From the IMG/VR virus record IMGVR_UViG_3300023301_000010, positions 1 through 57,650 of that record: a stretch of DNA of 57,650 nt. One strand, written 5' to 3'. Shown one piece after another: positions 18,818 through 38,117 of the stretch; the stretch's first letter is position 1, and each line of letters begins with the position of its first letter. Made by a program: the position numbers and the translations under genes. This stretch comes from a virus. Lineage: Duplodnaviria; Caudoviricetes. A model generated the notes under the pieces. It was not told the origin of the DNA. It made no database searches and saw only the letters and a program-made list of their open reading frames with translations.

Positions 18818-19086
18818 TCCCCGCCCCTTTGCATCAGCAACATCTCGTCATAGCCGATAGTTGCCAGTTTGATGAATTCTTCTTTCGTAATCACTTCCAC
18901 TGCCGTGGCACATGTTACGAAAAGAGAGCACTTAAAGATGAGAGCATTGACTTCTGCTTCTTCCATCCGCTCCGCGCATAGCGAATGAACCGCTGTCGCC
19001 GCGCAAGACATCAGTTCAGCTGCCATTTCCTCCAATTGCTCTTCCGAGAACCCATGCTCTGCGTCCATTTTCGTAACTACGTCCAT
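18793..19086 (-). CDS. Hypothetical protein
   Basis: Start at MDVVTK after GAGGAG. Confidence 0.6.
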   Translation of the reverse strand: MDVVTKMDAEHGFSEEQLEEMAAELMSCAATAVHSLCAERMEEAEVNALIFKCSLFVTCATAVEVITKEEFIKLATIGYDEMLLMQRGGEWVTNKMQ

Positions 19087-19600: not shown

Positions 19601-20063
19601 TCTACCCCTTCGTAACGAGCGGGCTGAGCCCCCGCTTCCTGATTTTGATATTTGCCCGTGTACGGGCTTTCGGTCGGGGTATCCATTTGCAGCAGAATAA
19701 TCTGAGCAATGGGAGTACCCTCCCTAATAGAAAGTACCATCGAACCGTTATCGAACCGTTGTTGACAAGCTCAAGTGTGAGCCACCCGTGCCACCCCGGC
19801 TCTATCACGGTGTTGAACAGGCTCAAACCACGGCGAGCCCATGTAGATTTGTCATGCACCATGCCGACAAGGTCCTCCGGCATTTCGAACCGCTCGACGG
19901 TCGAAGCCAGAGTGAAGTCCCCCGGTTTGAGCTCGACATCTTCGGCGATGCGAACGTCGTATCCGGCATGGCTCAACCCGTAGGTGAGTCCATTGGCGAA
20001 GGACTTTTCACAAAAGGGAGTGAAGATTCCGCGCTTACGGATAGACTGTGCTGAAAGGATCAT
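19597..20063 (-). pseudogene. dcd: dCTP deaminase, frameshifted by an 11-bp tandem duplication
   Basis: AGYDVR, HDKSTWARRG, NTVIEPGW.G.LTLEL; removing one ATCGAACCGTT copy (19739-19760) restores GTPIAQII...PYTGKYQNQ. Confidence 0.85.
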
Positions 20064-23440: not shown

Positions 23441-23997
23441 TCCGCAAGCTCCTGTGCGATGTAGTCGCTGCGCCCGGAAATATCAGGGCTCATCAGAACG
23501 CGGACCCGTGTGCCGATGGGGATAACCTTCAGCCGCTCAAGAATACGGTCAGTCGTGTGCGGCGGGACAAACACATTGCCGCCGTTGTAGTCGGCGAAAA
23601 TTATCCGCATCCCCGATTTGGCATAGGCGTGACGGGCGATGGTGATCTCACCGGAAATAATGTTGTTCGGGCGGTTGTAGGTTTCCCTGCCCTTTTTCAC
23701 ACCCGCGAGCAGCTCTGTCAGCCCCGCTCCGGGCGTTGCTATGGGCAGTGCAACAGGCGCAACCACCGGAGCAACCACGGCCTTATCAGAAGTTTCCATG
23801 AAGTCGATGTATTCCTGCATGATCTCGACCGCTTCTTGCGAAGGACCGTTGCGGAAGTCGCACCACAGATAGATCGAGTTGCGGGTGAACCCAGTCTCGT
23901 CGGAAAGCTTAGCCACACTTCCGGCCCTCTGCAGAGCCTTGGCAATAATCATCAACCGGGATTCAGTCATAACGTTCTTCATACTTGTCTCCACCAC
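23437..23997 (-). CDS. HTH-containing protein
   Basis: GSVAKLSDETGFTRNSIYLW...GPS, Cro/XRE-like N-terminus. Confidence 0.65.
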   Translation of the reverse strand: MVETSMKNVMTESRLMIIAKALQRAGSVAKLSDETGFTRNSIYLWCDFRNGPSQEAVEIMQEYIDFMETSDKAVVAPVVAPVALPIATPGAGLTELLAGVKKGRETYNRPNNIISGEITIARHAYAKSGMRIIFADYNGGNVFVPPHTTDRILERLKVIPIGTRVRVLMSPDISGRSDYIAQELAE

Positions 23998-24454
23998 ACA
24001 TGAACTCAGGCGGGTTACGTCTCCGCCACGTAGCTATCCTTGCTTTTTCTCCTAGATAGTAGGCACGGTAGGCAAGCGTCGTTTCGCGACACTTGTATTC
24101 GTCAGGCATGGCCTGAGCGAACGGGGTAAACCCTCGAGCAGTTAAGCTTATGGGAGCGCACCTGACCAATGCGAGAACCTCAGCGCACGCATGTATTTTA
24201 TCATAGCGGTGCTGATATTCTTTGCAGAGGGCGACGCCCAAACGCCAGAGCCATCGGTAGTTTTCCACAGACCGACTAGCCCACTGCGTACAGGGGTGAT
24301 TTTGATGACAGGGCTTGTAGGGGGCTTCTTCACCGTACAGGTGGTAGACCGTGCAAAGCATCTGCGCGGTTTCCAACGGCATCTTCACTACGTGCTTGTC
24401 GCAGTGGAACTGAGCTGCTGTAACGGGGTCGTAGTCTAGAACGAAGATGTTCAT
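23963..24454 (-). CDS. Pyrimidine-dimer DNA glycosylase-like protein
   Basis: MNIFVLD...HCDKHVVKMPLETAQML...NHPCTQW...QAMPDEYK...AYRAYY. Confidence 0.82.
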   Translation of the reverse strand: MNIFVLDYDPVTAAQFHCDKHVVKMPLETAQMLCTVYHLYGEEAPYKPCHQNHPCTQWASRSVENYRWLWRLGVALCKEYQHRYDKIHACAEVLALVRCAPISLTARGFTPFAQAMPDEYKCRETTLAYRAYYLGEKARIATWRRRNPPEFMCGGDKYEERYD

Positions 24455-24690
24455 TCCACCCACACCGAACGCGTCGGGCCGAGCGGTCCCACTATAACCC
24501 CGTAGATCATGATGCGTGCATTAGGCACGGCACTCATAATGCGGGCTTTTTCTTCCTGCGCCTCGGCAAGCGAAGGAAAATAATTGGTGGTGTAAGTACC
24601 GCGACCCCGAAACCAACAGCATGAAAATGCGTTGGCCGAAGACAGTATCTCAGCGTCGAAGTCGGCGCGGCTTTTGTCCGCGTATTCCAT
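24451..24690 (-). CDS. Hypothetical protein
   Basis: 79 aa, AAAGGA RBS. Confidence 0.7.
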   Translation of the reverse strand: MEYADKSRADFDAEILSSANAFSCCWFRGRGTYTTNYFPSLAEAQEEKARIMSAVPNARIMIYGVIVGPLGPTRSVWVE

Positions 24691-24718
24691 AGCAGCGTTC
24701 CTTTCTTGAACACCGTAA

Positions 24719-24747
24719 AGCTTAACTACCGTTTAATCCGTGGACAA
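24719..24747 (-). promoter_or_regulatory. Promoter overlapped by a CtrA-type box
   Basis: TTGTCC-N17-TAAGCT with TTAA-N7-TTAA at 24722-24736. Confidence 0.55.
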
Positions 24748-25272
24748 ACGGTTTTTGTTCCTGTTGTCCGCTGCCCATGCGACCACTGTGAAGATCTTTT
24801 TGTACTCTTCTTCTTGGCGGTAACGATCCCACAGATATTTGACACCGTTCTCAAACACGACCTCAAAATAGTGGTTGCCGAGTTTGATCTGTTCACTGGC
24901 GAAGATGACCAGTTCCAACATGTCACATATTTTCAGCCGCTTCTTTTCTTCAGGGTTCAAGATGATCGCCAAGCCGAGCTTCTTTTCCGCTTCAGCTTCG
25001 ACACGAGCTACCGCTTCGGCAAACTCGGGGTAAGCCCACTTGGTCGTGGCCGGAATATCCCCTATGAGGATTTCAGCAACGTCATGGTAAAGCGTAGCTA
25101 AAAGAAGACCTTTAGTGCTATGCGGCCAAAGCTCATTGAGCAAAGTCGCAACACCCCACGAGTGTGCTCCCACGGTTTGACTATCCCCTACTGTCGGTAC
25201 TGTATGAAAACGTTTGATGTACGCTGCACGACGAACATTTCCGATCCTTTCGATGAGCGGAAGACTTTCCAT
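24733..25272 (-). CDS. HD-domain 5'-deoxynucleotidase (YfbR-like)
   Basis: KRFH...QTVGAHSW...LYHDVAE...GDIP...KICDMLE. Confidence 0.88.
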   Translation of the reverse strand: MESLPLIERIGNVRRAAYIKRFHTVPTVGDSQTVGAHSWGVATLLNELWPHSTKGLLLATLYHDVAEILIGDIPATTKWAYPEFAEAVARVEAEAEKKLGLAIILNPEEKKRLKICDMLELVIFASEQIKLGNHYFEVVFENGVKYLWDRYRQEEEYKKIFTVVAWAADNRNKNRLSTD

Positions 25273-25273
25273 G

Positions 25274-27193
25274 TCACACTTCCATTTCGCTATGGTTTTC
25301 GCTCAAACCGCGAGTCCAAGGTTTGTCTGCAAAGGTGAGCTTCGCCTCACCCCAGTTGGGGCCGAACTCTGCGTCAACAATTGAAGGAACGCCGAGATTG
25401 ACACAGTTTTCCATGACCTGTTGAATACGTGCCGCCGTTTCGGGGTCGCCCACGCTGATGTCAAGTTCATCGTGAACCTGAATCATAGGCAAGATGCCCT
25501 GTTCGTATAGGGCTACCATTGCCGCCTTGGTTTGATCGGCTGCTGAACCCTGTATAAGCCTGTTCAGAGCCTTGTAGGTAAACGCGCGCCGTATACCGCT
25601 ACCGTGTTCGTTGAAGGCGTCCTTGTGGCTCAAGGGCTTGTGAATACCGTACCGGGAAGGTTCCCACATATCGAAGCGACAACGCCGCCCCAACAACGTC
25701 CGTATCACGCCCTTCTGCGCCGCCCTGTTCATGGTGTACTCGCTGAGCTGACGCACAAACGGCACGCGATCGTGATAGACCTTGAACAGTTCTTCGGCTT
25801 CGTCCAGTGCCAGACCCAAGCTTGCCGCAAGCTTGTTTTTCCCCATGCCGTAGAACAAACCCAGATTGATGTCCTTGGCCTGTTTACGGGGTACCCCTAC
25901 GATGGATGCCGCAAGCGCATGAAAATCCGTACGAGGATCCTTCTCGTACTGCTCGACAAATGCTCGAGCCCCTTCAAAATCCAAGAGACTTGCGTAATGC
26001 ACCACAAGGCGAGGCTCTTGACTGCTGTAGTCAAACGCGCCCCACTGTTCTCCAACTTCTGGTAGAAATAGGCTCCGGATAATCGGTCCGATCTCAGCAT
26101 TCCTTGCAGGAATTTGCTGAAGGTTAGGATCGCTATAACTGAATCGGCCCGTAACAGTGCCACCTTCGTCTGAGCGAAGTGAATGAATTTCCGCATGGAT
26201 ACGACCCTTGTGTGCGTGTTTCAGAATCGTGTCGATAAACGTGGTCCGCGCTTTGTTGAGCTCTCTCGCGTACACGATCTTCTTGGGCAGTGGATGATTA
26301 TGCGTTTTGAGGAACAGCTTGCCGAAGCTCGGTGCTCCCGTTTTCTCGGTCACCCCGTAGCTGATGCCCGCAACATCAAACGCCTTGGCTACACTCTGCG
26401 CCGCCCAGATGTCGACCGACACCCCATATTCCTGTTTCACTTCATGTAGGATAGCAGCTTCGCGCTTTTCCAAATCGGTTTTGATAAGGGCCGCACGTTC
26501 CAAGTCGACACGCACCCCTTTGGATCGCATATCGATAATGACTTTCTGCACCTTCAGCTCAAGATCGACAATGCTGCTGATGTCTTCTTTGATCACCAAT
26601 CCTTTGAAGTGGTTCCAAAGTTTCAGCGTCAGTGCCGCATCCTGCTCTGCATAGGCACCCACCATCGTAGCGGGGAGTTTGTACATTTCGGCTTTGGCAT
26701 CAACGCCGAAGTCGCGTGCAGACTCTTGCAACAGGCGTTCGTCTTTGCGTTCGTTCAGGTAATCGCGCCCCAACGAGTTGAGCGCGTAACTGAAACGGTT
26801 CTCGTCGAGCAAAGGTGCAACCACCATCGTGTCAACCACGCGGCCCTTTACTTCGATGCCTTCAGCTCTTAGCCAACCGACATCGTATCCCGCGTTATGA
26901 AAGATGAAAGTTTTTTCAGGGTCACTGCACAAATCACGAACCCAAGCCATAGTCCGCTTAGGATCGAGATTAGGGCCAAGACGATGACGAATGGGAAAGT
27001 ACCAAGCATCGCCTTCAACAGCGACGGCAACTCCGATAATTTCTCCGTCGCCTCGCGGCCAACCGCTGCCCCGGACTTTGAGGTTTGGGTCGTAGGTTTC
27101 AAGGTCAATCGATATTTCCTTTGCCCACTTGAGGTTCGGGTAGCCGTCTGGCATCACCCATTCCGTCGGCTGCGTGAAGAGGGGCAACTCCAT
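25274..27193 (-). CDS. polA: Family A DNA polymerase with 3'-5' exonuclease
   Basis: IDLET, HNAGYD and YAEQDA exonuclease motifs; FDYSSQEPR, KQAKDINLGLFYG and QVHDE polymerase motifs. Confidence 0.96.
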   Translation of the reverse strand: MELPLFTQPTEWVMPDGYPNLKWAKEISIDLETYDPNLKVRGSGWPRGDGEIIGVAVAVEGDAWYFPIRHRLGPNLDPKRTMAWVRDLCSDPEKTFIFHNAGYDVGWLRAEGIEVKGRVVDTMVVAPLLDENRFSYALNSLGRDYLNERKDERLLQESARDFGVDAKAEMYKLPATMVGAYAEQDAALTLKLWNHFKGLVIKEDISSIVDLELKVQKVIIDMRSKGVRVDLERAALIKTDLEKREAAILHEVKQEYGVSVDIWAAQSVAKAFDVAGISYGVTEKTGAPSFGKLFLKTHNHPLPKKIVYARELNKARTTFIDTILKHAHKGRIHAEIHSLRSDEGGTVTGRFSYSDPNLQQIPARNAEIGPIIRSLFLPEVGEQWGAFDYSSQEPRLVVHYASLLDFEGARAFVEQYEKDPRTDFHALAASIVGVPRKQAKDINLGLFYGMGKNKLAASLGLALDEAEELFKVYHDRVPFVRQLSEYTMNRAAQKGVIRTLLGRRCRFDMWEPSRYGIHKPLSHKDAFNEHGSGIRRAFTYKALNRLIQGSAADQTKAAMVALYEQGILPMIQVHDELDISVGDPETAARIQQVMENCVNLGVPSIVDAEFGPNWGEAKLTFADKPWTRGLSENHSEMEV

Positions 27194-27326
27194 CAGTAGT
27201 GACCTTCATTGATTGTTTGCACTGGCACCGAGGCCATTTGTTTTTCAACTGTCTAAAAGTAACGGTGCGGGATTCTTTCCCGCACTCGCATACTGCCAGA
27301 ACACGATCATCCAGAGCCAAACTCAT
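27105..27326 (-). CDS. Small Zn-ribbon protein
   Basis: CECG...CQCK; 3' end overlaps polA. Confidence 0.5.
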   Translation of the reverse strand: MSLALDDRVLAVCECGKESRTVTFRQLKNKWPRCQCKQSMKVTTDGVAPLHAADGMGDARRLPEPQVGKGNID

Positions 27327-27612
27327 TTTCACACCCGAGCATCTCTGCTTCAACGAGCAGAAGGTAGCGACGCAAGTCGCGGATGTCATCGAGAATACCA
27401 GTGTTCGACGGATCAAGCTTTATCGCCTTGAACACATCGTACCCTTGCTTTCCGGTTTGGTTTTCAATGCGGTCCCACTTACGGGCCAACATCATAAACG
27501 CCCCGACACCACCACGGCGCTTCCAACTGTCGCCGTAGCTTTCGCGGGCCTTGAGCAACCCCTTGCAATCCTGCTCGACAAGCTCGGGGAGATGGTCATA
27601 CAGAGTAATCAT
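27307..27612 (-). CDS. Nucleotide-modification-associated domain 1 (Nmad1/DUF1599, MazG-like)
   Basis: SYGDSWKRRGGVGAFMMLARKWDRIEN...DDIRDLRRY. Confidence 0.72.
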   Translation of the reverse strand: MITLYDHLPELVEQDCKGLLKARESYGDSWKRRGGVGAFMMLARKWDRIENQTGKQGYDVFKAIKLDPSNTGILDDIRDLRRYLLLVEAEMLGCENEFGSG

Positions 27613-28580
27613 TTCACCCTCCGTTCGAGCCACTCGACACACGCCTTGCGCCAGTCGTCGGCTTGGATTTCTTTGGCCACACTGATTGCCTCGATAAGGT
27701 CGCCACCCTTCCACACTCGCCACGCGCGGCGCATGGGGTCGGCTACCTCGTGAAAGAACGGATTATGGTACGGCGTCATCTGTTCACGCTTTTCGTCCGC
27801 CAAGAAACGAGAAAGGTCCATGTCAAACCGTTTGGCGTCCTTAACGAGCGGATAGTGCTTCAGGTTGTTGGTGGCGTAGGGGTCGTAGTCGGCCACCAAT
27901 CCATCGAGCTTTTTCAGCACTTCCGTATACGCATGAAAGCTGTCGGAGACCTGCGTGTAGCGACCGACTCCCACCCCGACCTGCGCCGCCATATATTCCA
28001 ACAGGAAACTGAAGTGGACGGCGTTGGCCCCATACGCTCCCCAGATCATATCGTTGCTGCGACAGCAAACCGTCATATGCAGGAGATCATCCCGCACCTT
28101 GAAGTAGATGTGCGTATTGCAGGGGATGTCATTGCTTTCATTGTTATCCATCAGATCCAGACTAGGATCCCAGATACCGACCACGGTACGGCGGTCGTTC
28201 TTGAAGTTCTTGAGGCGATACGCTGCCGTGACGAGTTGATCAGTTTCGAACCAGTTACGCCACCGATACCCGTAGGCTCCCCAAAAGCTTTGTCCGTCGT
28301 TGGAATACTCGGCGATACGCTTGTTGTACGGAGTCAACCACGCGACGTCCTTCCTACCACCCAACATCCACAAGCTTTCGAGCATGTGAAAGAAAGGGTT
28401 AGCGTCACGTTGCGGATAGAAAAGCACCCGCTCACACGGGTTCATGTAAGTAGTGGCCACGGGCATCGGCATTTCTAGGGTTTCCCCTGCCCGCGTCTGC
28501 ACTATATTTCCAGTATTCCGGATACGCAGTACCCCTAGATAGAGCGCTTCAGACACATTTTGGACGTTGATCGCGTGCAT
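27609..28580 (-). CDS. Thymidylate-synthase-family dUMP hydroxymethylase
   Basis: RDANPFF, GAYGYRWR, DIPCN (catalytic Cys), RSNDMIWGAYGAN (Asn at the dUMP-specificity position), SDSFHAY. Confidence 0.85.
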   Translation of the reverse strand: MHAINVQNVSEALYLGVLRIRNTGNIVQTRAGETLEMPMPVATTYMNPCERVLFYPQRDANPFFHMLESLWMLGGRKDVAWLTPYNKRIAEYSNDGQSFWGAYGYRWRNWFETDQLVTAAYRLKNFKNDRRTVVGIWDPSLDLMDNNESNDIPCNTHIYFKVRDDLLHMTVCCRSNDMIWGAYGANAVHFSFLLEYMAAQVGVGVGRYTQVSDSFHAYTEVLKKLDGLVADYDPYATNNLKHYPLVKDAKRFDMDLSRFLADEKREQMTPYHNPFFHEVADPMRRAWRVWKGGDLIEAISVAKEIQADDWRKACVEWLERRVK

Positions 28581-28581
28581 G

Positions 28582-29331
28582 TCAGCCCCCGAAAGCTTTC
28601 TTCCAATAAACGGTGACTTCGACGCGCTCGCCGAACTCTCCACCCGTCTTGTTCTTTTTGTTTCGCAGCTTGACGCAATCAGGATGACGATTGTGCAATG
28701 CGATAGCAGCGGCTTCGTGCTTTTCAACGTTGCGGTGAATACTGCATCCGCCCTTGGCCTGAGTGCCCGACTGATTCTGCGCGTAGTCTGTGAAAATGTA
28801 GCTCGGCTTCCCCTTTTTCAGGAGTTGCAGTGCAACATCAAAGTCTTCCATGTACTCAGCGCGGTGGTCGCACTCGAGGTATGCGCTCCGTTGGTAGCCG
28901 AGCACCCTCATGTACCGTTGGTTTTTCACATGGGGGTAGGGCAGTCGGTTTTGGCCTTCGCGAGCACTGATGCCGACATGCGCGTAAAGCTGCAACGCCA
29001 TTTCCATCTCGCGGAACAGGAACGAGTCCTCGTTCTTTTCCAAGGCCCGTAGGTGGTAGTCCACGTCTGACTTGCGCTTGTAGAAGGTAAGGTCGTCATC
29101 AAGCATGACGAAACTTTCCCCTGCGAGCTCTTTGGCAATGGTCAGGCGCTTTTCTCCAATGGTGTGGTACGGAATAGCGACCGCCTTGCACCCGTGCTGT
29201 TGAATAAGAGGGAGATACTTGTCCTTCTCATCCTCGTGCAGAACGAGTGTGACGTCTTGCTTCACACCCGGCAGTGACTCTAGCGTAGGGCAGCGATCCC
29301 ATCGCCCCCTGCTTACGACAAAGATATTCAT
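28582..29331 (-). CDS. TET-associated/GREB1-like (base-J-type) DNA glycosyltransferase, GT-A fold
   Basis: IFVVSRGR, FVMLDDDL (DxD), EDFDVALQLL, GGC, W-terminal motif. Confidence 0.8.
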   Translation of the reverse strand: MNIFVVSRGRWDRCPTLESLPGVKQDVTLVLHEDEKDKYLPLIQQHGCKAVAIPYHTIGEKRLTIAKELAGESFVMLDDDLTFYKRKSDVDYHLRALEKNEDSFLFREMEMALQLYAHVGISAREGQNRLPYPHVKNQRYMRVLGYQRSAYLECDHRAEYMEDFDVALQLLKKGKPSYIFTDYAQNQSGTQAKGGCSIHRNVEKHEAAAIALHNRHPDCVKLRNKKNKTGGEFGERVEVTVYWKKAFGG

Positions 29332-29349
29332 ACCCCATACTCGCTTTCT

Positions 29350-30213
29350 TCAGAGCGTTGGTTTGAACAGGCTTCGCGGTCTGCCTTGATCTAGCAGTAC
29401 TCGCATGTACTTATCCCACTCGCAGAGTGAATGTTCAATAGAGCGCATGTCGAACTCGGCTTGTGGCACATGGTTTCCCAAGTACTCTGCGCTACGCTGC
29501 AAAAGCTCGTACATTTCAGCATTCCAATCGCGAGCCTTGATACTGTTCAGGTCGCGACCGTGAATGCGATTTAGTCCGCGCTTGGCACCGGGTCCGGCAT
29601 TGGCCCATTTCATGCGGTCTTTGGCGAGCGCCAGAACCGGAGTGTGGTTAAGGTCGGTGATCACCTCATACGCCATGAAACCACCACCACCCCACCCTCT
29701 GAACTGTCCAAGGACACCGTGCATCGCTTGGAGCGAGTTGGTCTCCCTAGCCATATCGGCAAGGTACTTTCGGTTTTCCCACAGAGGGTTCAGAAAAAGG
29801 TCGACCACCACCTGTTCCTTCGGGTCTTTGAGCCCTTGGTTGGTGATGATGTAAGCCCCCGTGAAGACCTTTTTACCACTGTTGAGCCGATTGCGGGCGA
29901 GCGCCTTGGCATAGTTGGGATTCCACTTCTTGGTCCACCCATGCTGTTCGGCAAACTCCATCGTACCGAACATCCGAAACAGGCAGCAGTTGAAGATGAT
30001 CTCTTCAGCTGGGCTGTCATGGTTCGGGTTGGTCCAGTGCTTCCGCATCCAAAGGGTAGTGCGGTCATATTCACGAAACACGTTCGTGAACTTATATGTT
30101 TGAAGGATTTTGTCCTCGGTCCAAGGCGCGGCGTCACCCGCTCTACGCTTGGCGTAGATCAGATGACGCTCGTTGATCCAATAGAAAAACTTTTCGAGGT
30201 TTTCCTGAATCAT
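29350..30213 (-). CDS. aGPT-Pplase1-family (5-hmdU DNA kinase helical-domain) DNA-modifying protein
   Basis: FFYWINERH...PWTEDKILQTYKFTNVFREYDRTT, FTGAY, FMAYEV..DL, GPGAKRGL, IEHSLCEWDKY. Confidence 0.88.
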   Translation of the reverse strand: MIQENLEKFFYWINERHLIYAKRRAGDAAPWTEDKILQTYKFTNVFREYDRTTLWMRKHWTNPNHDSPAEEIIFNCCLFRMFGTMEFAEQHGWTKKWNPNYAKALARNRLNSGKKVFTGAYIITNQGLKDPKEQVVVDLFLNPLWENRKYLADMARETNSLQAMHGVLGQFRGWGGGGFMAYEVITDLNHTPVLALAKDRMKWANAGPGAKRGLNRIHGRDLNSIKARDWNAEMYELLQRSAEYLGNHVPQAEFDMRSIEHSLCEWDKYMRVLLDQGRPRSLFKPTL

Positions 30214-30221
30214 GGCCGTGC

Positions 30222-30938
30222 TCAATACTTGGCGATCAGTCCGATGTAGCCGCTTTTCGTGGCCCACCGAACGAAGTCGCGCGCAACCTTTTCTTGGTTG
30301 TCCGCATCCTGCAACCGACGCACGGCTTCTTCTACCGTTGCGGAAGCCTGAATCAGCATCATGTTCTTGTAACGGAGAGAGGCCTCACGACCTTCGAAGT
30401 TTTTAAGAACCTTGATGGCTTCATCCCCGTGAATACGGAGGTTGTTGGGGTTAGGCAAAGGAGACTCCACTTTGGCTTTGGGTTGCGCCTTGGGCCGTGT
30501 AGCAGCCCTAACAGGCGAAGGGTCCACAGGGGCTTCCTGCGGGGTCGGTACGGTAGCGGTTGCCCGCTTCAGCACCATGCTATGCAAGGCTTCCGCCGCG
30601 ACGCTCGGTGAAGGAAATCCGTTGGTTCCGTAAGGGAACGAACGCTTGCCCCCGTTGAGAGCAAGCCAGACGGCATCGAGCTCGTCTTTGCGGAAGAAAT
30701 CTACAAGCTGTTTTATTTCAGAGTACACCACCGCCGTCTCACTTACGACCTTAGCGGTATGTGCATCTTTCAAACTCTTGAACTTGTAGACGTTGTAGGG
30801 CTTGCCGTCACTGGCGGGTTGCCCCTCGGCGATAACGTAGTACATGCTGTCCCTTTCTACGACAGAGTGTGCAACTACCGTAAACGGTGCCGTTGCACTG
30901 ACAAGAGCTACCTTCTCCACCCTCCAAGCGTGTGCCAC
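30222..30938 (-). CDS. Hypothetical protein within the modification operon
   Basis: 238 aa with a Pro/Ala linker and a small C-terminal basic domain. Confidence 0.75.
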   Translation of the reverse strand: MAHAWRVEKVALVSATAPFTVVAHSVVERDSMYYVIAEGQPASDGKPYNVYKFKSLKDAHTAKVVSETAVVYSEIKQLVDFFRKDELDAVWLALNGGKRSFPYGTNGFPSPSVAAEALHSMVLKRATATVPTPQEAPVDPSPVRAATRPKAQPKAKVESPLPNPNNLRIHGDEAIKVLKNFEGREASLRYKNMMLIQASATVEEAVRRLQDADNQEKVARDFVRWATKSGYIGLIAKY

Positions 30939-31573
30939 AGTTTCTCATTGCGCTTAGGAGGAACTACCGTTTCCCAATCGGCAAAGCCTTCGATGACTTT
31001 TTCTGCCAGTTGGAACCAAGGAATGTACTGACTAGCGGGAGTATTGTAGTGCAGCTCCATACTAAATTCACGTACAGAGTCCGGGAGTGTGAAGGTGCCG
31101 CCGTTCAACAGCAAGTCATACTCGGCCCCTTCGCAATCCATCTTGATCGCTTCGGGCAGTACACTCCCCAACACCTTGCTGAAGTTGGAAGCGCCGACAG
31201 TAACCTTTTCGCGGCCACGAATGGAGTACATGCTGTAGTTGCCGTGATTGGTGCCGTCGGTGAGGAAGAAGTCGATAGACTTTGCATCACTGGAAACCAG
31301 AGCCGAGTTATGCAGCTTGGCCCGAGCATCACTGCCTACGTTCTTGGTCAGCAGTTCGAAGTTTTCTTTGTCGGGCTCAAACGCCCAAACTTCCTTCGCG
31401 CCATTGGCCAGAGCCCAATGTGTGAACGCGCCGATGTTGGCACCGACATCGAGAACAACGCGGTCCTTAACGGCCATCCAACCGTAACTACGGTTGATTT
31501 CACGAATGATTGAATGGTCATAGGTGTCTGGACGAATGAACATCCCGTTGGGATGTTGAATGAGATTGGTCAT
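30908..31573 (-). CDS. FkbM-family SAM-dependent methyltransferase
   Basis: VVLDVGANIGAF, AFEPD.ENF, IKMDCEGAEY. Confidence 0.9.
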   Translation of the reverse strand: MTNLIQHPNGMFIRPDTYDHSIIREINRSYGWMAVKDRVVLDVGANIGAFTHWALANGAKEVWAFEPDKENFELLTKNVGSDARAKLHNSALVSSDAKSIDFFLTDGTNHGNYSMYSIRGREKVTVGASNFSKVLGSVLPEAIKMDCEGAEYDLLLNGGTFTLPDSVREFSMELHYNTPASQYIPWFQLAEKVIEGFADWETVVPPKRNEKLWHTLGGWRR

Positions 31574-31595
31574 GTCTGCGCCTTCTTTCTTAGGG

Positions 31596-31625
31596 GGCGG
31601 GGACCATTTTGCACATGGTCCCCGC
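31596..31625. other. Intergenic stem-loop
   Basis: GCGGGGACCAT-N7-ATGGTCCCCGC with no U tract. Confidence 0.6.
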
Positions 31626-31640
31626 CGCGACAAGACTTGA

Positions 31641-32681
31641 TTACGCTACGTTGGCGTATTCCATCGCCTTAGTCAACGCCTTGCGCTTGATGTTGGCTCC
31701 TGAGCCGAACCACGCGCTGTAGAGGGAATTGCCTTCCTGTGAGGAGCGGCGGGGGTGGTCAACGGCGTAGGTCACGGCGTTGAAGGCACCCCACCACGTA
31801 CCACGGGCCGACTTCATGTCGCTGCCGGGAGACATCTCAAAAGCCTCGGCAACGGTCAAGGCGTTGCGCTTGAACTCATCACGCAACGGCGGGAGGTCAT
31901 TGGCCGCTTTGCCCTGCGCCTTCGCCCTTTCGATAAGGGTCGTAGGCTGAAGCAACTCGGCAATGAAGTTATCGACATCGAACGTTTTGGCGCTCTTAGA
32001 CGAAAGGTACTCCGACTGCTGCTTGAAGGTTTCCATGCAGTTATGACTCAATCCGAGCGCTTCTTCTGCCGCACGCATAACTTCATCGTTGAACATTTGC
32101 AGGTGAAGAACGCGGAAGCGGTTTTGCGATGCAGCATCGCCCAAAGCAAGGGTCAGCGTGTTATTGCAAACCACTCGGATCGGCGTGAACATGATGGTCA
32201 TCGCCTTGCCGACTTGGTGGCTGTTGTTGAGCAGCAAGTAGCCCTCAACTTCGTCGCCCCCCGCAAGCTTGAAGCCTTCTTTCAGCTTGGCGAGGCCCCA
32301 CACTTCTTTACCGAGCTTGAGGCTTCCGGCGGTTTCCATGTTCATGTGGCCCGCTTCGGTAAACTTCTTGAAGAAGCCCATCACCTCACGGTTTTGAAAC
32401 GGGTTGTACCCCGTACCGCAATGCGAAAGAACGCTGTTGTCGCTGTCCCGCACCACGAAGAAGCTGTCTTCTATGAGCATCATATCTCCGCTCGCCTTCG
32501 GGTTGTACTGGTTGTCGACAGAAGGCAGCGTAGACACGTAAGCGGACCGCTTGCTTACCGTCCAGTCCAGTTCGGCCGCAACCAACATTTCCTCAGGGGT
32601 CATGTTGCTGTCAACGTGCTTGCCGAGGCCGTGCCACGGAACTGCATTGGCATAGGCCATAGTTTCAACGAGATGTGCCAT
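31641..32681 (-). CDS. DUF932 family phage/plasmid protein
   Basis: MAH.VETMAY..VPWHGLG, METAGSL, TPIRVVCNNTL, GTWWGAFNAVT. Confidence 0.9.
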   Translation of the reverse strand: MAHLVETMAYANAVPWHGLGKHVDSNMTPEEMLVAAELDWTVSKRSAYVSTLPSVDNQYNPKASGDMMLIEDSFFVVRDSDNSVLSHCGTGYNPFQNREVMGFFKKFTEAGHMNMETAGSLKLGKEVWGLAKLKEGFKLAGGDEVEGYLLLNNSHQVGKAMTIMFTPIRVVCNNTLTLALGDAASQNRFRVLHLQMFNDEVMRAAEEALGLSHNCMETFKQQSEYLSSKSAKTFDVDNFIAELLQPTTLIERAKAQGKAANDLPPLRDEFKRNALTVAEAFEMSPGSDMKSARGTWWGAFNAVTYAVDHPRRSSQEGNSLYSAWFGSGANIKRKALTKAMEYANVA

Positions 32682-32695
32682 GATACTTTCTCCTA

Positions 32696-32992
32696 TCAGT
32701 TGGCTTTGCCGAGGTTAACCTCGGCGGTCATGGTAGGCAGCGCGTCAAACACTGCCTGTTCGAAGTCGATACACACTTGTTCACAGTTGGCGCTAAGAAT
32801 AACCAAAGCTCTCACCATGCCGCGAACTGCACATGTTTCTACGATCGGGTACTTTGTTTCCGGCCGCAGGAATAATTCAAGGTCTTTGTGGCTTACATGG
32901 CCACCGTGACCATGTTCTGACGCGTGTTCGTTGGCGTTCAAAAACGCTTCCTTTGTAAGATAAGGAAACGTTACCACTTTGAGCATACCCAC
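32696..32992 (-). CDS. Hypothetical protein
   Basis: 98 aa, AAGGAGG RBS. Confidence 0.7.
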   Translation of the reverse strand: MGMLKVVTFPYLTKEAFLNANEHASEHGHGGHVSHKDLELFLRPETKYPIVETCAVRGMVRALVILSANCEQVCIDFEQAVFDALPTMTAEVNLGKAN

Positions 32993-33055
32993 ACCCTCCT
33001 TGTACTTACCCCCCTACTACACCCCGCGCCGTTGCCGTTGACAAAAGCTATTTTA

Positions 33056-34582
33056 TCAATGCGGTACGCTAAAGCCTCTGGTACGCATGGGATGTATCAG
33101 GTGAAGATTGGTTTTGGCTCTTGTCAACCCAACGTAGAACACCCGCACCTCGTCATCGTCTGCGGTCATGGTCTTGCGCCACATCGACGTTTGCAGGTTA
33201 GAGTCGGTGGTGAGCATTACGTTTTCAGCCTCGCGACCCTTTGCAGCATGGATAGTGCTGATGGTAATGCGCGGGCTTGCGTCTAACCGCTGTCCTTTTG
33301 CAAAGCACGCCTTGAGGTAACGGCGGTCTTTTTCGGGGATACGACCCAGTCCTTCTTCCCACGATAGAGTATGCAGTAGGCCGTGGTGCATCATTAGGTC
33401 TTCAATGCCGAAGAACTGCTCTTCCTTCACATTGTTCATAGCCTTGTACCCGTAGGCGACTTGGGTATTCAACAGCATGAACTTGTAGATTGTTCTAACG
33501 TCTGCTGCCCTCAACCGTTCCCCACTACGGAGAGCTTCCCACAACCGAACCGCTTGCAAGACTTCCCCGTCGATAGACCTGCTCCCGTTGAAGTTATAGA
33601 GCATACCCCGTTGTCGAACTTCTTCTTCCAACTGTTGAGCACCCTTGCGGGTACGCGACATGAGCAACCACTCGCCATTGTCCAATGAAACTTCTTCACT
33701 GTGACGGTGCCAGAAGATGCCGCCTTCGCCCTCCCGTGGAAGAAAGATCTTGTCGCGCCGCTTTGGTATCCGCGAGACGACCTTTTGGCTGACTTTGTGG
33801 TGGTTGATGGGTATGCGGTAACTTTGCCCAAGGACTTCGACGTTGCCTTCAAGTCCGATAAAGTGCTCAACGTCGGCACCCGCCCAACGGTAGATAGCTT
33901 GGTCATCGTCGCCCGCGATGTAGACCGTTTTGGCACGGGCCGCTATCTGCTCGACCATCATCCATTGCAGAGCACTAAGGTCTTGGGCTTCGTCGATGAA
34001 CACTACCTCGAGCTTCGGGGCAAGGTTGCGCTTGACGAACTGTTCCAATAGATCAGTGTAGTCGTACAGACCCACCGTGTCTTTGAAGTGTCTTATCCCA
34101 CGGTTGACATAGTCAACTCTTGCCCAGTCTGTTTTCAGCGGAACGGTCGAATAATTGTAGACCTCCCGCAGTGGCTTGCATGTTATCCGGCTCATCGTGA
34201 TGAGCTCCAGGAACTTGTCGCCGTAACCGAAGTCTAAGAACGGTCCTTGGTCCTGTTCCGAAGAAGGAACAAACCCTCCAATCTTCAACCACTTGGCGAC
34301 CTCCGCGTAGTGGTCTTGCGTCATCATCTGTTGCCGCGTGATACCGATTTGACCGTAGGCGAGGCTATGCAGTGTTTTGAAGTATGGAAGGTCTTTGTCT
34401 GTCAACCTGAACCGGGCCATCGCCCGGCTCATCGCTTCGTTTGCTGCCGCCCGTGTGAAGGCGAAATAGCCGATGCGATCTGGAGGCGCACCTTTCTCCA
34501 AATGCTCCTCCACAAGCGACAACAGTTTTGTTGTCTTGCCTGTGCCGGGAGGACCGAGAATGATGTTGAACTCAGATGACAT
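33056..34582 (-). CDS. UvrD/Rep-family SF1 helicase
   Basis: GPPGTGKT, FIDEAQD, AGDDDQAIY, QSYR, STIHAAKGREA, FYVGLTRA. Confidence 0.93.
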   Translation of the reverse strand: MSSEFNIILGPPGTGKTTKLLSLVEEHLEKGAPPDRIGYFAFTRAAANEAMSRAMARFRLTDKDLPYFKTLHSLAYGQIGITRQQMMTQDHYAEVAKWLKIGGFVPSSEQDQGPFLDFGYGDKFLELITMSRITCKPLREVYNYSTVPLKTDWARVDYVNRGIRHFKDTVGLYDYTDLLEQFVKRNLAPKLEVVFIDEAQDLSALQWMMVEQIAARAKTVYIAGDDDQAIYRWAGADVEHFIGLEGNVEVLGQSYRIPINHHKVSQKVVSRIPKRRDKIFLPREGEGGIFWHRHSEEVSLDNGEWLLMSRTRKGAQQLEEEVRQRGMLYNFNGSRSIDGEVLQAVRLWEALRSGERLRAADVRTIYKFMLLNTQVAYGYKAMNNVKEEQFFGIEDLMMHHGLLHTLSWEEGLGRIPEKDRRYLKACFAKGQRLDASPRITISTIHAAKGREAENVMLTTDSNLQTSMWRKTMTADDDEVRVFYVGLTRAKTNLHLIHPMRTRGFSVPH

Positions 34583-36101
34583 TTGAGTTTTGTTTCAACT
34601 CGGGAAGATCGATCTGCTCGCCATCTGCACCCTCTACATGGAAGAACTCTTCAGGTAGTGACCACACATGGATACCCTTGCTCTTAATCCGCCAGTACAT
34701 CTTGTCGGCACCCGCATCGGTCAAACGAAGAGTGATCTTGTTGGAAGAGTACGAGTTGAATTTGTTCACTTCCAGATGCTTTTTCACATCCTTGATTTGG
34801 AACCAAACTCGACCCTCTGTCCAAACGGCGATGCCCTGCAAAATGTCATCACGAGTTTCACCCCGCGCACGGTCACAACAGAAAGCAGTGAGCAGTTCTT
34901 CAAACTCACCCCGCAACGTGGCATCGGGCGGAACTTCAACAACGGTTACGTTGTCCAACAAAGTCTGCATACGCGTCTGCCATGCACGGGCGTTCACCGT
35001 AATGGGGTAGCGATTAATCTGCCCAACGCATTCTTTCTGGAACTGCACTTGGCTGACCAGTGCCTCGGTGCTGAGCTCTACCCGCTTGCCGTCAACGTTG
35101 AGGATCCAAATAGGCGGATCACCGTTGATCTTGATCAGAGACGAAAGGTCATTGTTTGACTGCCCCGGCCCTACCCCGAACTTACGGGTCAGGCACAAAG
35201 CCTTGTTGCAGAAGCTTGCGATGGGTTGGTCATCACACTTGTAGAAGTAGTCCTTCTTCTGCAACTGTTTGATGATAGTCGACACTTCGCCGTGGCCCAA
35301 GGGCGGCTTCATGTAGTCCATATTGTATTTGACGATCAGCTGTTCCCAGTTGTCCGAATCGCTCTGCCGCGCGTACACCCCTAGGTCGAACAAAGCGTTG
35401 TTTCTGCCGCCTTCGCCAAAGCCCTGAGCGCAAAGGTGCTGAAGGCAGGGTGGTCCTTCGGGCAGCAGCTCTTGCGCCTTCGCGGGGCTCAGCTTTACCT
35501 TGAAGAAGGTATCGGGGGCTATTACCCGGCCTTCTGCAAAAGGTATGAACTCGTCGAGGCTGAGGGAGTCACCTTCCAAGCCGAAACCGTAGCGGGTTGT
35601 CATATCCCCGCCGAAGTACGGCATGTTCAGAAAGTTGCCAGTATCGCCACGCTCAACCAACAGGTGAGTCTGTTTGGGGAAGATTTCGCTGCCCGCGTAG
35701 CCGATGGCTCCGGACACCCCCTGAAGCTTTTCCTGCAAATCTTCTGCAGAAACTTCTTCCGTAAAGAAGAAGTACACATGCGCTCCGCCCGACTTGGAGC
35801 GGCACACCACCGCGTTCAAACCCATCTTTTCCAGTTTGGCGATGAGCTTCTTGTGGTTGACATCGTACTTGTCGATATCAATGGCACCCCAATGACAATG
35901 GTCATTGTCTTTGATTGGAATGATGCCAAGGCCGACCTCACCTTCTAGGTGGTCTAGCCAATGCTGCAATCCAGTCTCCTCGCGGAGAACCTTTGCGTTA
36001 CCTTTCTGTTTTCCTTCACCTTTATCGGTCGAAGGTTGAAAGGTACCGTGCGCGCGGTCATTTCCCCTGAACAGGGACATCAGTCTTTCTGCTTGATCCA
36101 T
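34572..36101 (-). CDS. Primase (AEP-type) with PriCT-like domain
   Basis: WGAIDID, RSKSGGAH, EIFPKQ, GNFLNMPY, PPC...GGRNNALF, Cys cluster. Confidence 0.85.
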   Translation of the reverse strand: MDQAERLMSLFRGNDRAHGTFQPSTDKGEGKQKGNAKVLREETGLQHWLDHLEGEVGLGIIPIKDNDHCHWGAIDIDKYDVNHKKLIAKLEKMGLNAVVCRSKSGGAHVYFFFTEEVSAEDLQEKLQGVSGAIGYAGSEIFPKQTHLLVERGDTGNFLNMPYFGGDMTTRYGFGLEGDSLSLDEFIPFAEGRVIAPDTFFKVKLSPAKAQELLPEGPPCLQHLCAQGFGEGGRNNALFDLGVYARQSDSDNWEQLIVKYNMDYMKPPLGHGEVSTIIKQLQKKDYFYKCDDQPIASFCNKALCLTRKFGVGPGQSNNDLSSLIKINGDPPIWILNVDGKRVELSTEALVSQVQFQKECVGQINRYPITVNARAWQTRMQTLLDNVTVVEVPPDATLRGEFEELLTAFCCDRARGETRDDILQGIAVWTEGRVWFQIKDVKKHLEVNKFNSYSSNKITLRLTDAGADKMYWRIKSKGIHVWSLPEEFFHVEGADGEQIDLPELKQNSNVI

Positions 36102-36172: not shown

Positions 36173-36970
36173 TCAGAAAGGAACGTCGTCGTCAAGCACA
36201 GGACCACTGTGTTCCTGCTCTTCCTTCACCTTGACATCACCCGCCCGGACAGATTGGGCAAAGCCGTAGGCGAGCTCAAACATTTCAACGTCGTCAGAAA
36301 CAGACTCGTCGAGCGCACGCGCACGGCTGACTTCCCAACCGAACCACGAACCCTTGTCATTGCGCTCCTCTACCGTGCGAAGCGTATAAACACTGGACAT
36401 CATTGGCATGGTGTAGAGGCGACCGTTGGCATCACGCCCCGTAAGGGACTGCATCTGAGTGAGCCACTTACGGGCCTTTTTCAACTGCGTCGACGTCATC
36501 GTGATAAGGCAACGCTGCGGACCCAGATCGGGATGCATCAGCAATACAAAGAACTGCGCCGTATTGGTCAACAAGTTGCCGTTGGGCAAAATGTCGTTGC
36601 CACGGTCGTCCTTGGTCGTGCGCTTGATAATGGGGTCATCAGCGGAATAGCTGCCCACATACCCGCCGCCCTGATCCCGAGGACGCCATTCAACCATGCG
36701 ACGGCTGTAGTGGCACGGCACAACCAGAATACCCTTTTCACCGTCGTACGCTTCGTTGGCGACAGTGTTGAAGATCATTCCGGCTTCGGCACCCTGCACA
36801 TAGGCACCGTCACGCTTGTTGACCTGCGGGCTGAGCTGAGCCAAAATGCGGAGGAAAGGAACAGAAAGATCCTGTGCCGTAATTTCCTCAAACCCGCTTC
36901 CGGCAGCAGCGGCAAACCCACCACTGAGGGCAATGGCAGTTTCTTTCTTCACTGCAACTTGCTTAGACAT
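36173..36970 (-). CDS. ssDNA-binding protein
   Basis: PFLRILAQLSPQV, MTSTQLKKARKW, NDKGSWFGW, acidic tail DDDVPF. Confidence 0.8.
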   Translation of the reverse strand: MSKQVAVKKETAIALSGGFAAAAGSGFEEITAQDLSVPFLRILAQLSPQVNKRDGAYVQGAEAGMIFNTVANEAYDGEKGILVVPCHYSRRMVEWRPRDQGGGYVGSYSADDPIIKRTTKDDRGNDILPNGNLLTNTAQFFVLLMHPDLGPQRCLITMTSTQLKKARKWLTQMQSLTGRDANGRLYTMPMMSSVYTLRTVEERNDKGSWFGWEVSRARALDESVSDDVEMFELAYGFAQSVRAGDVKVKEEQEHSGPVLDDDVPF

Positions 36971-36971
36971 C

Positions 36972-37517
36972 TCACTTCCCCTTGATCTTGGCCTTGCGGC
37001 CCGTAAAGATACCGAATAGGTCCGACGGGATACCATTACCCGCTTCTACCTGTTCCTTGACAAACGCCTTCAAAGTCATGGGTTCGACCCATTCCTTCTG
37101 CGACGTAGCAAACCCCTTAGACTGGAGTTCTCCGGCCACGGACTTTGCAACGTTGTCCTCGTTGCGGCCGAAGCTTACACTGACCACGTTCTTGATCAGA
37201 TCGCCGTGGCTATTGGACCGTAGCCAGTTGAACGCTTCTTCAGTGCGGTCCTTGGGTATAGAAGCCCCGTAGAACGTCTGCACGCTGACGGTAGAACCAT
37301 CGTCCATGCGAAGTTCTTTCAAGCCGTACTCTTCAAGCGCGGAAGGCAGCATGTCTTCGGCAATAGACCGAAACTCTTCCTTCTTCTGCTTGAGCAGCTC
37401 TTCCAAGCCTTCAATATCCATTTCCAATGCCAACTGTCGGCGCACCAACCCGGCAACACTGGACAACCCGTCTTCGTCCAGACGACTCAGCTCGTTTGCA
37501 GCTTCTGCAAAGCGCAT
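36972..37517 (-). CDS. Conserved replication-module protein
   Basis: AFNWLRSNSHGDLIKN...VEPMTLKAFVKE. Confidence 0.8.
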   Translation of the reverse strand: MRFAEAANELSRLDEDGLSSVAGLVRRQLALEMDIEGLEELLKQKKEEFRSIAEDMLPSALEEYGLKELRMDDGSTVSVQTFYGASIPKDRTEEAFNWLRSNSHGDLIKNVVSVSFGRNEDNVAKSVAGELQSKGFATSQKEWVEPMTLKAFVKEQVEAGNGIPSDLFGIFTGRKAKIKGK

Positions 37518-37521
37518 CTTT

Positions 37522-37845
37522 CTACTCCACCTCTGGCCTGTGAAACAGGTTCACGGCAATGGGTAGGTAACGGTTGTCTATCCGGTCCCACTTCAACACC
37601 TTGAATCTGCCGTTATTGCTCACCGCTGCAAGAGCACAAGCGATACCGATACAAACGGGGTCGCCCGCTAGTATAAGGTAGTCCTTGTCTGTGAACTTGC
37701 TGAGCTTCCGTTCCATGCGGCGAACGGTAGGCATTGCGGAGAGTGCTATCTGGTCCTTTGCAGGAACCAGAATATCCAGCTCGCCGAACACCACTGCGTC
37801 GGAAAGATCCCGACCACGCATTTCTTGAGTGATGTACACCGTCAC
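37522..37845 (-). CDS. Hypothetical protein
   Basis: VYITQE...DYLILAGDP...LKWDR; GTG start after GGGGAG. Confidence 0.75.
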   Translation of the reverse strand: MTVYITQEMRGRDLSDAVVFGELDILVPAKDQIALSAMPTVRRMERKLSKFTDKDYLILAGDPVCIGIACALAAVSNNGRFKVLKWDRIDNRYLPIAVNLFHRPEVE

Positions 37846-38117
37846 GGCTTTCTCCCCGTTAGTGAGCCATAGTACGCAGCCCAAGCTTTCGGGCAAGCCT
37901 CATTTTGTCGAGCACTTTCCTATTAAGGCAGTTTTTCAAACAGAGAGTGAAAAATAACGCTTTAGGGTTCACTATCAAATATACGATATCTTAACTGGTT
38001 TAAGGATACGAACTATTTCCGTCGGCAGCAAATTGAGTAGAAGAGAAAATAATTTTTGTCGGCTTGGAAACCTCCCTTATAGTGAAAGTGCGACCGACCA
38101 GAAAGGGCAGTTTTCAC
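37846..38117. promoter_or_regulatory. Divergent AT-rich promoter region
   Basis: Lies between head-to-head genes; contains CTTAAC-N4-TTAAGG at 37990-38005. Confidence 0.6.

Follow-up and report, generated by a model that had tools for sequence, protein, structure and literature searches.

What base a phage would place in its DNA when a thymidylate synthase (TS) homologue, a glycosyltransferase (GT), a methyltransferase of the FkbM family and a clade-1 aGPT-Pplase (Pplase1) are encoded side by side is the question raised by positions 27307..31573 of IMG/VR record IMGVR_UViG_3300023301_000010 (Duplodnaviria; Caudoviricetes). The record, which is treated here at its full length as the window, is linear and comprises 57,650 bases with a CheckV completeness of 97%. 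A reading of the letters without database searches (the sequence-only reading) had proposed a TET-independent pathway to an undescribed, sugar-bearing and possibly methylated 5-hydroxymethyldeoxyuridine (5-hmdU). Judged from gene content and its conservation, glycosyl-5-hmdU in virion DNA, possibly O-methylated, is the best reading of the present analysis as well, and is considered moderately probable. Gene families were assigned by Pfam, PHROG and NCBIfam profile searches. All genes of the run lie on the minus strand and their ends abut or overlap, in agreement with the co-oriented, tightly packed arrangement described earlier; of the eight gene labels that had been given, seven held up, and one, Nmad1 for the small gene at 27612..27307, failed every profile test.

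The hydroxymethylated base would be made by the TS homologue (27609..28580, minus strand; 323 aa), which matches PF00303 (4.1e-19) and phrog_5131 (1.7e-108), is 43.5% identical to the TS homologue of phage M6 and carries a dUMP hydroxymethylase signature. In an alignment of the window protein with E. coli ThyA, T4 gp42, SPO1 gp29, M6 gp58 and PhiJL001 gp24 (alignment A3), Cys146 and Arg166 (ThyA numbering) are invariant, and positions 143/146/166/169/177 read D-C-R-D-N in the window, in SPO1 gp29 (annotated as a dUMP hydroxymethylase), in M6 gp58 and in PhiJL001 gp24. The window protein keeps Cys146, Arg166, Asp169 and Asn177, with Leu143 changed to Asp; the Asn that the sequence-only reading had seen at the dUMP-specificity site does stand in the E. 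coli ThyA-177 column. In a larger TS alignment the D-C-R-D-N pattern is found in 92 of 96 rows, the four exceptions being E. coli ThyA, T4 (locally misaligned), L021 (Ile at 143; loci from the viral scans are designated by L and a number) and one truncated row. T4 gp42 has Asp in the ThyA-177 column of A3; the larger alignment shows Tyr there, with the T4 row shifted by one. Regarding these positions, Asn177 has been described as diagnostic for dUMP versus dCMP and an acidic residue at 143 for a hydroxymethyl versus a methyl product, while 5-hydroxy-dCMP synthases carry Asn at position 169 (PMC13326640). A function as 5-hydroxy-dCMP synthase or as dCMP hydroxymethylase was rejected on the basis of Asp169 and Asn177. 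Because the active-site pattern is that of SPO1 and M6, the assignment as dUMP hydroxymethylase is well supported by sequence.

Two different routes to dUMP are suggested by the genes of the window and its close relatives: the window has a dCTP deaminase/dUTPase-like gene 7.5 kb away (19602..20063, minus strand; PF22769 1.3e-15, PF00692; TIGR02274 3.5e-21, below cut-off), whereas in close relatives a dCMP deaminase gene lies between the TS and 101-aa genes (L129, 3492-3998), a place where the window has none. The HD-domain protein of the window (24733..25272, minus strand) is a YfbR-like 5'-deoxynucleotidase (PF12917 1.7e-14, NF003009), and its homologue adjoins the TS gene in M6, in PhiJL001 and in the uncultured record MW202897, which shares the core of the cassette.

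The single GT (28582..29331, minus strand; 249 aa) is, on profile evidence, a GT-A enzyme of the TET-associated glycosyltransferase (TAGT) family, as the sequence-only reading had it (PF20691, 79.6 bits against a cut-off of 27.5, 3.9e-22; phrog_842, 2.3e-48). Its D78-D79-D80, the GT-A DxD motif for metal and nucleoside-diphosphate (NDP) sugar, is intact and is invariant in 30/30 sequences. The protein is 41% identical to PhiJL001 gp22; PDB sequence searches with the GT and with a GT profile gave no relative. A profile-guided scan of IMG/VR found a GT relative encoded in 208 of 228 pattern-matched stretches. Gene context was recorded for 86 loci, consisting of the best 80 of these 208 stretches and six further loci from the first scan (L005 being in both), without de-replication. 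A TS gene is present in all 86, followed in frequency by PolA (84), Pplase1 (83), the 101-aa protein (79), a Pyr_excise-like protein (63), UvrD (61), AEP primase (52), DUF932 (50) and HD (30); FkbM and the 207-aa protein encoded next to it in the window are found in none, and the same holds for the kinase, amino-acid:DNA transferase (AADT), pyridoxal-phosphate (PLP) enzyme and radical-SAM enzyme of the M6 type (0/86 each). With a TS nearby in 86/86 loci, genomic context suggests a hydroxymethylpyrimidine in DNA as the putative acceptor of the TAGT. Since there is only one GT, it would have to act on the base and not on a first sugar. A second-sugar role of the T6 type was set aside, as no other GT was found among the scanned ORFs, which were those of about 110 aa or more outside the structural-gene half of the genome. 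In one locus, L008, two short ORFs (66 and 87 aa; 7759-8320) share the GT match between them, while Pplase1, TS, HD and PolA are intact; the GT gene may be broken there, or the split may stem from a sequencing frameshift.

These observations bear on the view that virion DNA contains plain 5-hmdU, as in SPO1, and that the targets of the GT and FkbM lie outside DNA, for example in a host surface glycan or a protein, the adjacency of their genes reflecting only the clustering of early genes. Glycan pathways often include FkbM-family and GT-A enzymes, and 27 of 33 FkbM-bearing viral contigs belong to FkbM clades other than that of the window, none of them with a TAGT. The GT of the window, however, matches a DNA-specific family above cut-off and its relatives stand beside a TS of the dUMP-hydroxymethylase type in every locus, while the FkbM clade of the window is itself linked to TAGT genes, both in TS-route and in TET/JBP-route clusters; the probability left to plain 5-hmdU is accordingly regarded as slight.

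Regarding genes of other modification pathways, the profiles of the kinase (PF18748), the AADT (PF18724) and Tet_JBP (PF12851) gave no match at E<=1 in the whole record, and tblastn with the AADT, PLP enzyme, radical-SAM enzyme and kinase of M6 against the window was empty, which is in line with the absences claimed by the sequence-only reading. In positive controls the kinase and AADT profiles found the M6 genes (AADT, 159.7 bits). Neither profile has a match in five relatives that are 99-100% complete; PhiJL001 likewise has no match to the kinase profile, and to the AADT profile it has no more than a cross-hit below threshold, made by its Pplase1, gp19. Because the GT clade lies beside a hydroxymethylase-type TS in 86/86 loci, without kinase, AADT or TET, a TET-independent pathway that places a sugar on 5-hmdU, as proposed from the letters, is the simplest reading.

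In this pathway the dCTP deaminase/dUTPase-like enzyme would supply dUMP, and the HD 5'-deoxynucleotidase would remove competing dTMP. The TS homologue would convert dUMP to 5-hmdUMP, and host kinases together with the phage PolA would put 5-hmdU into DNA. After replication, the GT would move a sugar from a host NDP-sugar onto the 5-hydroxymethyl group, as in base J, and FkbM would O-methylate the attached sugar. The Cys of Pplase1 would add at C6 of the same flipped-out base, where it would probably aid sugar transfer or convert part of the 5-hmdU further. The outcome would be restriction-resistant virion DNA.

The candidate for the methylation step is a FkbM-family SAM methyltransferase (30908..31573, minus strand; 221 aa from ATG, an upstream TTG at 31633 being a possible start), which matches PF05050 (46.9 bits against a cut-off of 22.7, 4.5e-12) and TIGR01444 (77.8 bits against 37.7), so that its earlier label is retained; a PDB sequence search gave one weak match only. 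FkbM homologues were found in 33 viral loci, and in the FkbM tree the window groups with L012, L013, L014, L015/L016 and L021 (support 94/91, not starred). A TAGT is encoded on the same contig for six of the seven rows of this group, the seventh being a 5.7-kb fragment. Among the 33 FkbM-query contigs, five carry a TAGT, all in the group of the window, as compared with 0/27 other contigs, and in 0 of 500 label shuffles were the TAGT-bearing contigs as clustered on the tree. Members of the group occur in both kinds of gene cluster. Those of the TS route have the orders FkbM-Pplase1-GT-TS-HD (L015/L016) and UvrD-Pplase1-FkbM-GT-TS-HD-PolA (L021). In L012 (1056-3360) the order is Tet_JBP-FkbM-TAGT, beside the large terminase and with no TS gene, and L013 has a Tet_JBP-like gene and a TAGT-like gene 5.6 kb from FkbM; these two clusters may be the dioxygenase-route counterpart of the pathway of the window. 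The order DUF932-FkbM-unknown protein recurs in L126 and L130.

Since this clade accompanies the TAGT whichever route makes the hydroxymethyl base, its distribution argues for a step after sugar attachment. The sequence-only reading had cast FkbM as an O-methyltransferase of the pathway, and the specific tie of the clade to TAGT genes is compatible with O-methylation of the sugar, an assignment that is put forward tentatively. Alternatively, FkbM might methylate the 5-hydroxymethyl oxygen of some 5-hmdU, giving 5-methoxymethyl-dU, or another position of the DNA, which would result in a mixture of glycosylated and methylated bases. The recurrence of FkbM with enzymes of both routes that generate 5-hydroxymethylpyrimidines would agree with this, and nothing in the sequence identifies the FkbM acceptor; on the other hand, a TAGT is present in every contig of the clade that is long enough to judge, in keeping with a dependence of FkbM on the sugar. 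No member of the FkbM family is known to act on DNA, and this alternative is considered quite unlikely.

The sequence-only reading had left Pplase1 (29350..30267, minus strand; 305 aa from GTG, homologues suggesting an ATG at 30213) as a bystander. Its family label is firm (PF18723, now HMUDK_hel, 189.9 bits against a cut-off of 25, 8.1e-56), but the bystander role is not upheld, as two features of amino-acid:DNA transferases, their fold and their catalytic Cys motif, are retained in the protein. The family has 4091 representatives at E<=0.001. An AlphaFold2 model built from a 91-sequence alignment reached a mean predicted local distance difference test score (pLDDT) of 95.3, and its best structural match in a wide VIA-align search (48,161 chains) was the glycinyltransferase gp46 of PaMx11 (8z2m_A; Z 10.9, 226 residues, root-mean-square deviation 4.2), followed by queuine-salvage DUF2419 proteins and HhH DNA glycosylases (Z 7-10), values of a size that calls for caution in all-helical proteins such as Pplase1. 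Foldseek of the model against the PDB gave nothing at E<=0.001, and the PDB sequence search found no relative. In the alignment Cys282, Glu283 and Lys286 are invariant (91/91 sequences); position 278 is occupied by Glu in 59 sequences and by Gln in 32. The E-H-S-L-C-E segment aligns with E-T-V-L-C-K of M6 gp51 (Cys247), although the hhalign match is weak (E 0.061). This agrees with PUGT, in which Glu243 and Thr244 are reported to hold the metal and Cys247 to attack C6 (PMC11472151). The L-C-E core is kept in M6 gp55, PhiJL001 gp19, L015, L021 and L129.

Pplase1 thus combines an AADT-type fold with a catalytic Cys and a Glu four residues upstream of it, though it has no match to the PF18724 profile, and sequence and model suggest an active enzyme whose chemistry resembles that of the AADTs. 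The Pfam name HMUDK_hel implies a 5-hmdU kinase partner, for which PF18748 has no match in the window or in the five complete relatives. Regarding longer relatives of Pplase1, HMUDK_hel was found in 10/10, a partial HhH-GPD domain in one and a kinase domain in none. A predicted complex of Pplase1 and GT (score 0.01, mark 0.32) is evidence neither way. The fold and the E-x-x-L-C motif would imply a second reaction on the base; because both are kept, the pathway may end in something other than a plain glycoside.

At its strongest, this view would make Pplase1 the key transferase of the pathway: its Cys would add at C6, the C5 group would be expelled and a new group installed, and the product would not be simple glycosyl-5-hmdU. 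The leaving group could be water from 5-hmdU or the sugar placed by the GT, the GT then taking the activating role of the M6 kinase; the final base would be a non-glycoside derivative, or a derivative then acted on by the GT and FkbM. For such a role speak the closeness of the fold to the AADT structure 8z2m, the invariant Cys, Glu and Lys with Glu or Gln at position 278, the alignment of the motif with the Cys that is essential in M6 gp51 and in PUGT, the presence of Pplase1 in 83/86 GT loci without a kinase, and the report that pelagiphages of clades V, VIII and IX have TS + Pplase1 pairs but no GT with them (PMC9599517). Against it stand the weak hhalign match, a Z value that lies within the cautioned range for an all-helical protein, the poor leaving ability of hydroxide or a glycoside in comparison with phosphate, and the finding that the M6 reaction ran in vitro without gp55 (PMC8989533). 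The proposal is held to be an unlikely but serious competitor of the glycosyl-5-hmdU reading. Its most far-reaching form is improbable: Pplase1 would be a kinase-independent base transferase whose Cys at C6 of 5-hmdU or glycosyl-5-hmdU swaps the C5 substituent, the reaction would be activated or completed in this abundant lineage of marine phages by the GT in place of a kinase, and the outcome, together with FkbM, would be virion DNA with a methylated sugar-thymine adduct so far unseen in any DNA.

Several points weigh against glycosyl-5-hmdU, possibly O-methylated, as the product. Pplase1 with an intact motif is conserved in 83/86 loci and implies a reaction which a plain scheme of a GT acting on 5-hydroxymethyluracil does not need, so that the product may differ; its clade-1 homologue in M6, gp55, was dispensable when the pathway was reconstituted in lysates (PMC8989533). 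The TAGT members treated in one paper have 5-hydroxymethylcytosine (5-hmC) DNA as their substrate or, in T6, attach a second glucose to glucosyl-hmC, and none is shown acting on 5-hydroxymethyluracil in the text of that paper (PMC13390438). Among the scanned ORFs none was recognised as serving NDP-sugar synthesis, and for this reason the sugar cannot be named. Regarding methylation, FkbM is found in 0/86 of the GT-derived loci, its substrate could be the base hydroxyl or another target, and the close relatives L127-L129 lack FkbM, L129 having a divergent TAGT.

The unknown ORF between FkbM and Pplase1 (30938..30222, minus strand; 238 aa from GTG at its longest) has no Pfam, PHROG or NCBIfam family, as was first noted from its translation. 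Its start is probably Met32 (30845), because three homologues are 206-207 aa in length, which gives a protein of 207 aa (30222..30845); these three are the homologues present in a set of 5.8 billion proteins. A scan of viral contigs with the 238-aa ORF found no relative, and an alignment-based scan found the 207-aa protein in five metagenome loci of close relatives (L126-L130). The Pplase1 gene follows directly in all three loci that extend downstream (L127, L128 and L129), and FkbM precedes the 207-aa gene in L126 and L130, with no FkbM in L127-L129. The AlphaFold2 model is of moderate quality (pLDDT 62.8); it shows a pair of small domains with a disordered linker between them and has no fold match, including by Foldseek against the PDB at E<=0.001.

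The small protein at the other end of the run (27307..27612, minus strand; 101 aa) is highly conserved, with 3152 homologues at E<=0.001, many of them from marine samples and typically 60-75% identical. In 79/86 GT loci its gene has the TS or HD gene on one side and PolA on the other. It belongs to no Pfam family (no match at E 10), and the genome has no match to DUF1599 (PF07659) at E<=10, so that the Nmad1 label is unconfirmed; nor does the genome match DUF3310, none of 27 relatives of the protein match either domain, and a PDB search with the family profile gave no relative. The nearest ESM-Atlas clusters (0.97 and 0.96) have DUF1599 on 11% and 25% of their members, which is a lead to a possible distant relation and not a membership. 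Identity of the family with the DUF3310 proteins that take its place in M6, PhiJL001 and elsewhere was rejected (hhalign probability 0.09).

The region as a whole reads, in transcription order, AEP-type primase (36101..34572), UvrD-like helicase (34582..33056), a 98-aa ORF, DUF932 protein (32681..31641), FkbM, the 207-aa protein, Pplase1, TAGT, the TS homologue, the 101-aa protein, PolA, HD, a 79-aa ORF and the Pyr_excise-like protein, all on the minus strand like nearly all genes of the genome; the first three families named with coordinates were assigned by profile search. The GT stop abuts the TS start, the TS stop overlaps the start of the 101-aa gene in ATGA, and the PolA and HD genes abut; the cassette is read as translationally coupled. 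PolA (25274..27193) is a family-A DNA polymerase with a 3'-5' exonuclease domain (PF00476 1.4e-58, PF01612), and for this gene and the HD gene (27193..25274 and 25272..24733) the earlier labels are correct. The sole sizeable gap of the cassette, 113 bases before polA, holds a terminator-like hairpin (27265..27285, minus strand; 8-pair stem, 6 of the pairs being G-C, followed by a T-rich tail), which is weak evidence because such sites are no commoner in the region than in shuffles (12 versus 10.3 expected). The Pyr_excise-like protein (23963..24463, minus strand; PF03013 7.5e-06, phrog_624 1.7e-64) resembles T4 endonuclease V and is encoded downstream of HD in the window; in 63/86 loci its gene lies between UvrD and Pplase1, directly upstream of the latter. 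It may be a further member of the cassette that handles DNA bases.

Megablast of positions 24000-36000 against phage records gave no match. The PolA of the window is 51-55% identical to the polymerases of 023Pt_psg01, HTVC027P and HTVC023P, and by sequence the window holds, almost in full, the genome of a marine-type phage that is a relative of the HTVC023P-type pelagiphages. In 023Pt_psg01 the helicase gene runs almost directly into that of PolA, and the modification genes of the window are therefore seen as a cassette inserted between the two. A GcrA-like cell-cycle regulator (19016-19600, minus strand; PF07750 8.5e-14) suggests an alphaproteobacterial host, while a G+C content of 54% speaks against a SAR11 host. 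The sole clear plus-strand gene in the middle of the genome encodes a SNF2-family helicase (38064-39557), adjoined by genes similar to Pam3 gp32-gp34 (36173-37896). The 238-aa and 101-aa ORFs of the window have identical protein counterparts on a contig twice as long as the record (115,321 bases), which could be a concatemer or a different assembly.

The word undescribed, used for the base by the sequence-only reading, holds for the chemistry and not for the genes. A block of TS, aGPT-Pplase1, 5'-deoxynucleotidase and glucosyltransferase near PolA was reported in 2022 for HTVC023P-type pelagiphages and related there to M6 and PhiJL001, its product and mechanism being unnamed in that text (PMC9599517), and because of this report the core of the cassette is not new. 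PhiJL001, deposited in 2004-5, has the same core (gp19 Pplase1, gp22 GT, gp23 Nmad5, gp24 TS, gp25 HD, gp26 DUF3310, gp28 PolA). Phage GTs of the GT-A-like type have further been reported to split between 5mYOX and ThyS neighbourhoods, again with the product unnamed in the text (Pyle et al., bioRxiv 2023.12.21.572611). In the main texts of the literature searched, a sugar attached directly to 5-hmdU in phage DNA is not reported (the supplements of the pelagiphage and Pyle papers may list the gene set), and no link of FkbM to hypermodification of phage DNA was found. What is known is thus the association of the core genes; new are the small FkbM clade that adjoins TAGT genes whether the cluster follows the TS route or the TET/JBP route, the AADT-like active site that Pplase1 keeps intact where no kinase is encoded, and the lineage-specific 207-aa protein as a conserved upstream partner of Pplase1.

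If the glycosyl-5-hmdU reading is true, a base-J-like, sugar-modified thymine is made without a dioxygenase by phages that form a large group, widespread in marine and fresh waters, with at least 208 IMG/VR stretches encoding the GT clade; a sugar on 5-hydroxymethyluracil is so far known only from kinetoplastids, where it is made by another route. This would matter for the evasion of restriction, for biased sequencing of viromes and for enzymes used as tools to tag 5-hydroxymethyluracil. The FkbM clade would likely be the first methyltransferase that tailors a DNA glycan. As kinase and AADT are absent and the catalytic motif is intact, the cassette offers a clean setting for the long-unassigned clade-1 aGPT-Pplases, and the prediction is directly testable, since the cultured relative PhiJL001 carries the core.

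Among known systems, the HTVC023P-type pelagiphages and PhiJL001 are closest, being of the same lineage with the same core genes beside PolA (PMC9599517). The 'partner AMGs' (auxiliary metabolic genes) of the pelagiphages are TS and aG/PT-PPlase1, sometimes with a 5'-deoxynucleotidase as well as a beta-glucosyl-HMC-alpha-glucosyltransferase (PMC9599517). The window adds FkbM and the 207-aa protein to this set, and PhiJL001 has Nmad5 and DUF3310 genes where the window has none or the 101-aa protein.

With M6, ViI, PaMx11 and PhiW-14 the window shares a gene set in the same order (TS, 43.5%, and Pplase1, 35% identical to the M6 proteins, with HD and PolA) and the general plan of 5-hmdU made before replication and decorated afterwards. 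The systems of these phages consist of a dUMP hydroxymethylase, the 5-HMUDK kinase, a clade-2 aGPT-Pplase (AADT) and tailoring enzymes, whereas the cassette of the window has TAGT and FkbM instead of kinase, AADT, PLP and radical-SAM enzymes. The glucosyl-hmC system of the T-even phages likewise employs a hydroxymethylase of the TS family before replication and adds the sugar on DNA later; it comprises the dCMP hydroxymethylase gp42 and alpha- and beta-GTs, and the TAGT of T6, which is of the same Pfam family, adds a second glucose (PMC13390438). In the window, by comparison, the predicted substrate is dUMP and not dCMP (Asn versus Asp at position 177), and there is a single GT.

Base J of the kinetoplastids (JBP1/2 and JGT) belongs to the product class predicted here, a sugar on 5-hydroxymethyluracil, and phage GT-A enzymes are reported to share structural similarity with JGT of T. 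cruzi, their sequences being about 9% identical (Pyle et al., bioRxiv 2023.12.21.572611). Unlike that system, the window has no JBP/TET dioxygenase (no match to PF12851), and its 5-hydroxymethyluracil would be made as a nucleotide and replace T throughout the genome, not at chosen sites. The phage GT-A clusters with 5mYOX (TET/JBP) enzymes (Burke 2021; Pyle 2024; PNAS 2026) share the GT family, and the FkbM clade of the window is found in such clusters (L012, L013), but the hydroxymethyl group of the window would arise by the TS route before replication and not by oxidation on DNA. In SP-15 and Carin-5, finally, phage DNA also contains a sugar-bearing replacement of thymidine; there the sugars are carried on a dihydroxypentyl linker with phosphate, in large myoviruses with several sugar-nucleotide genes, none of which the window has (PMC12686479).

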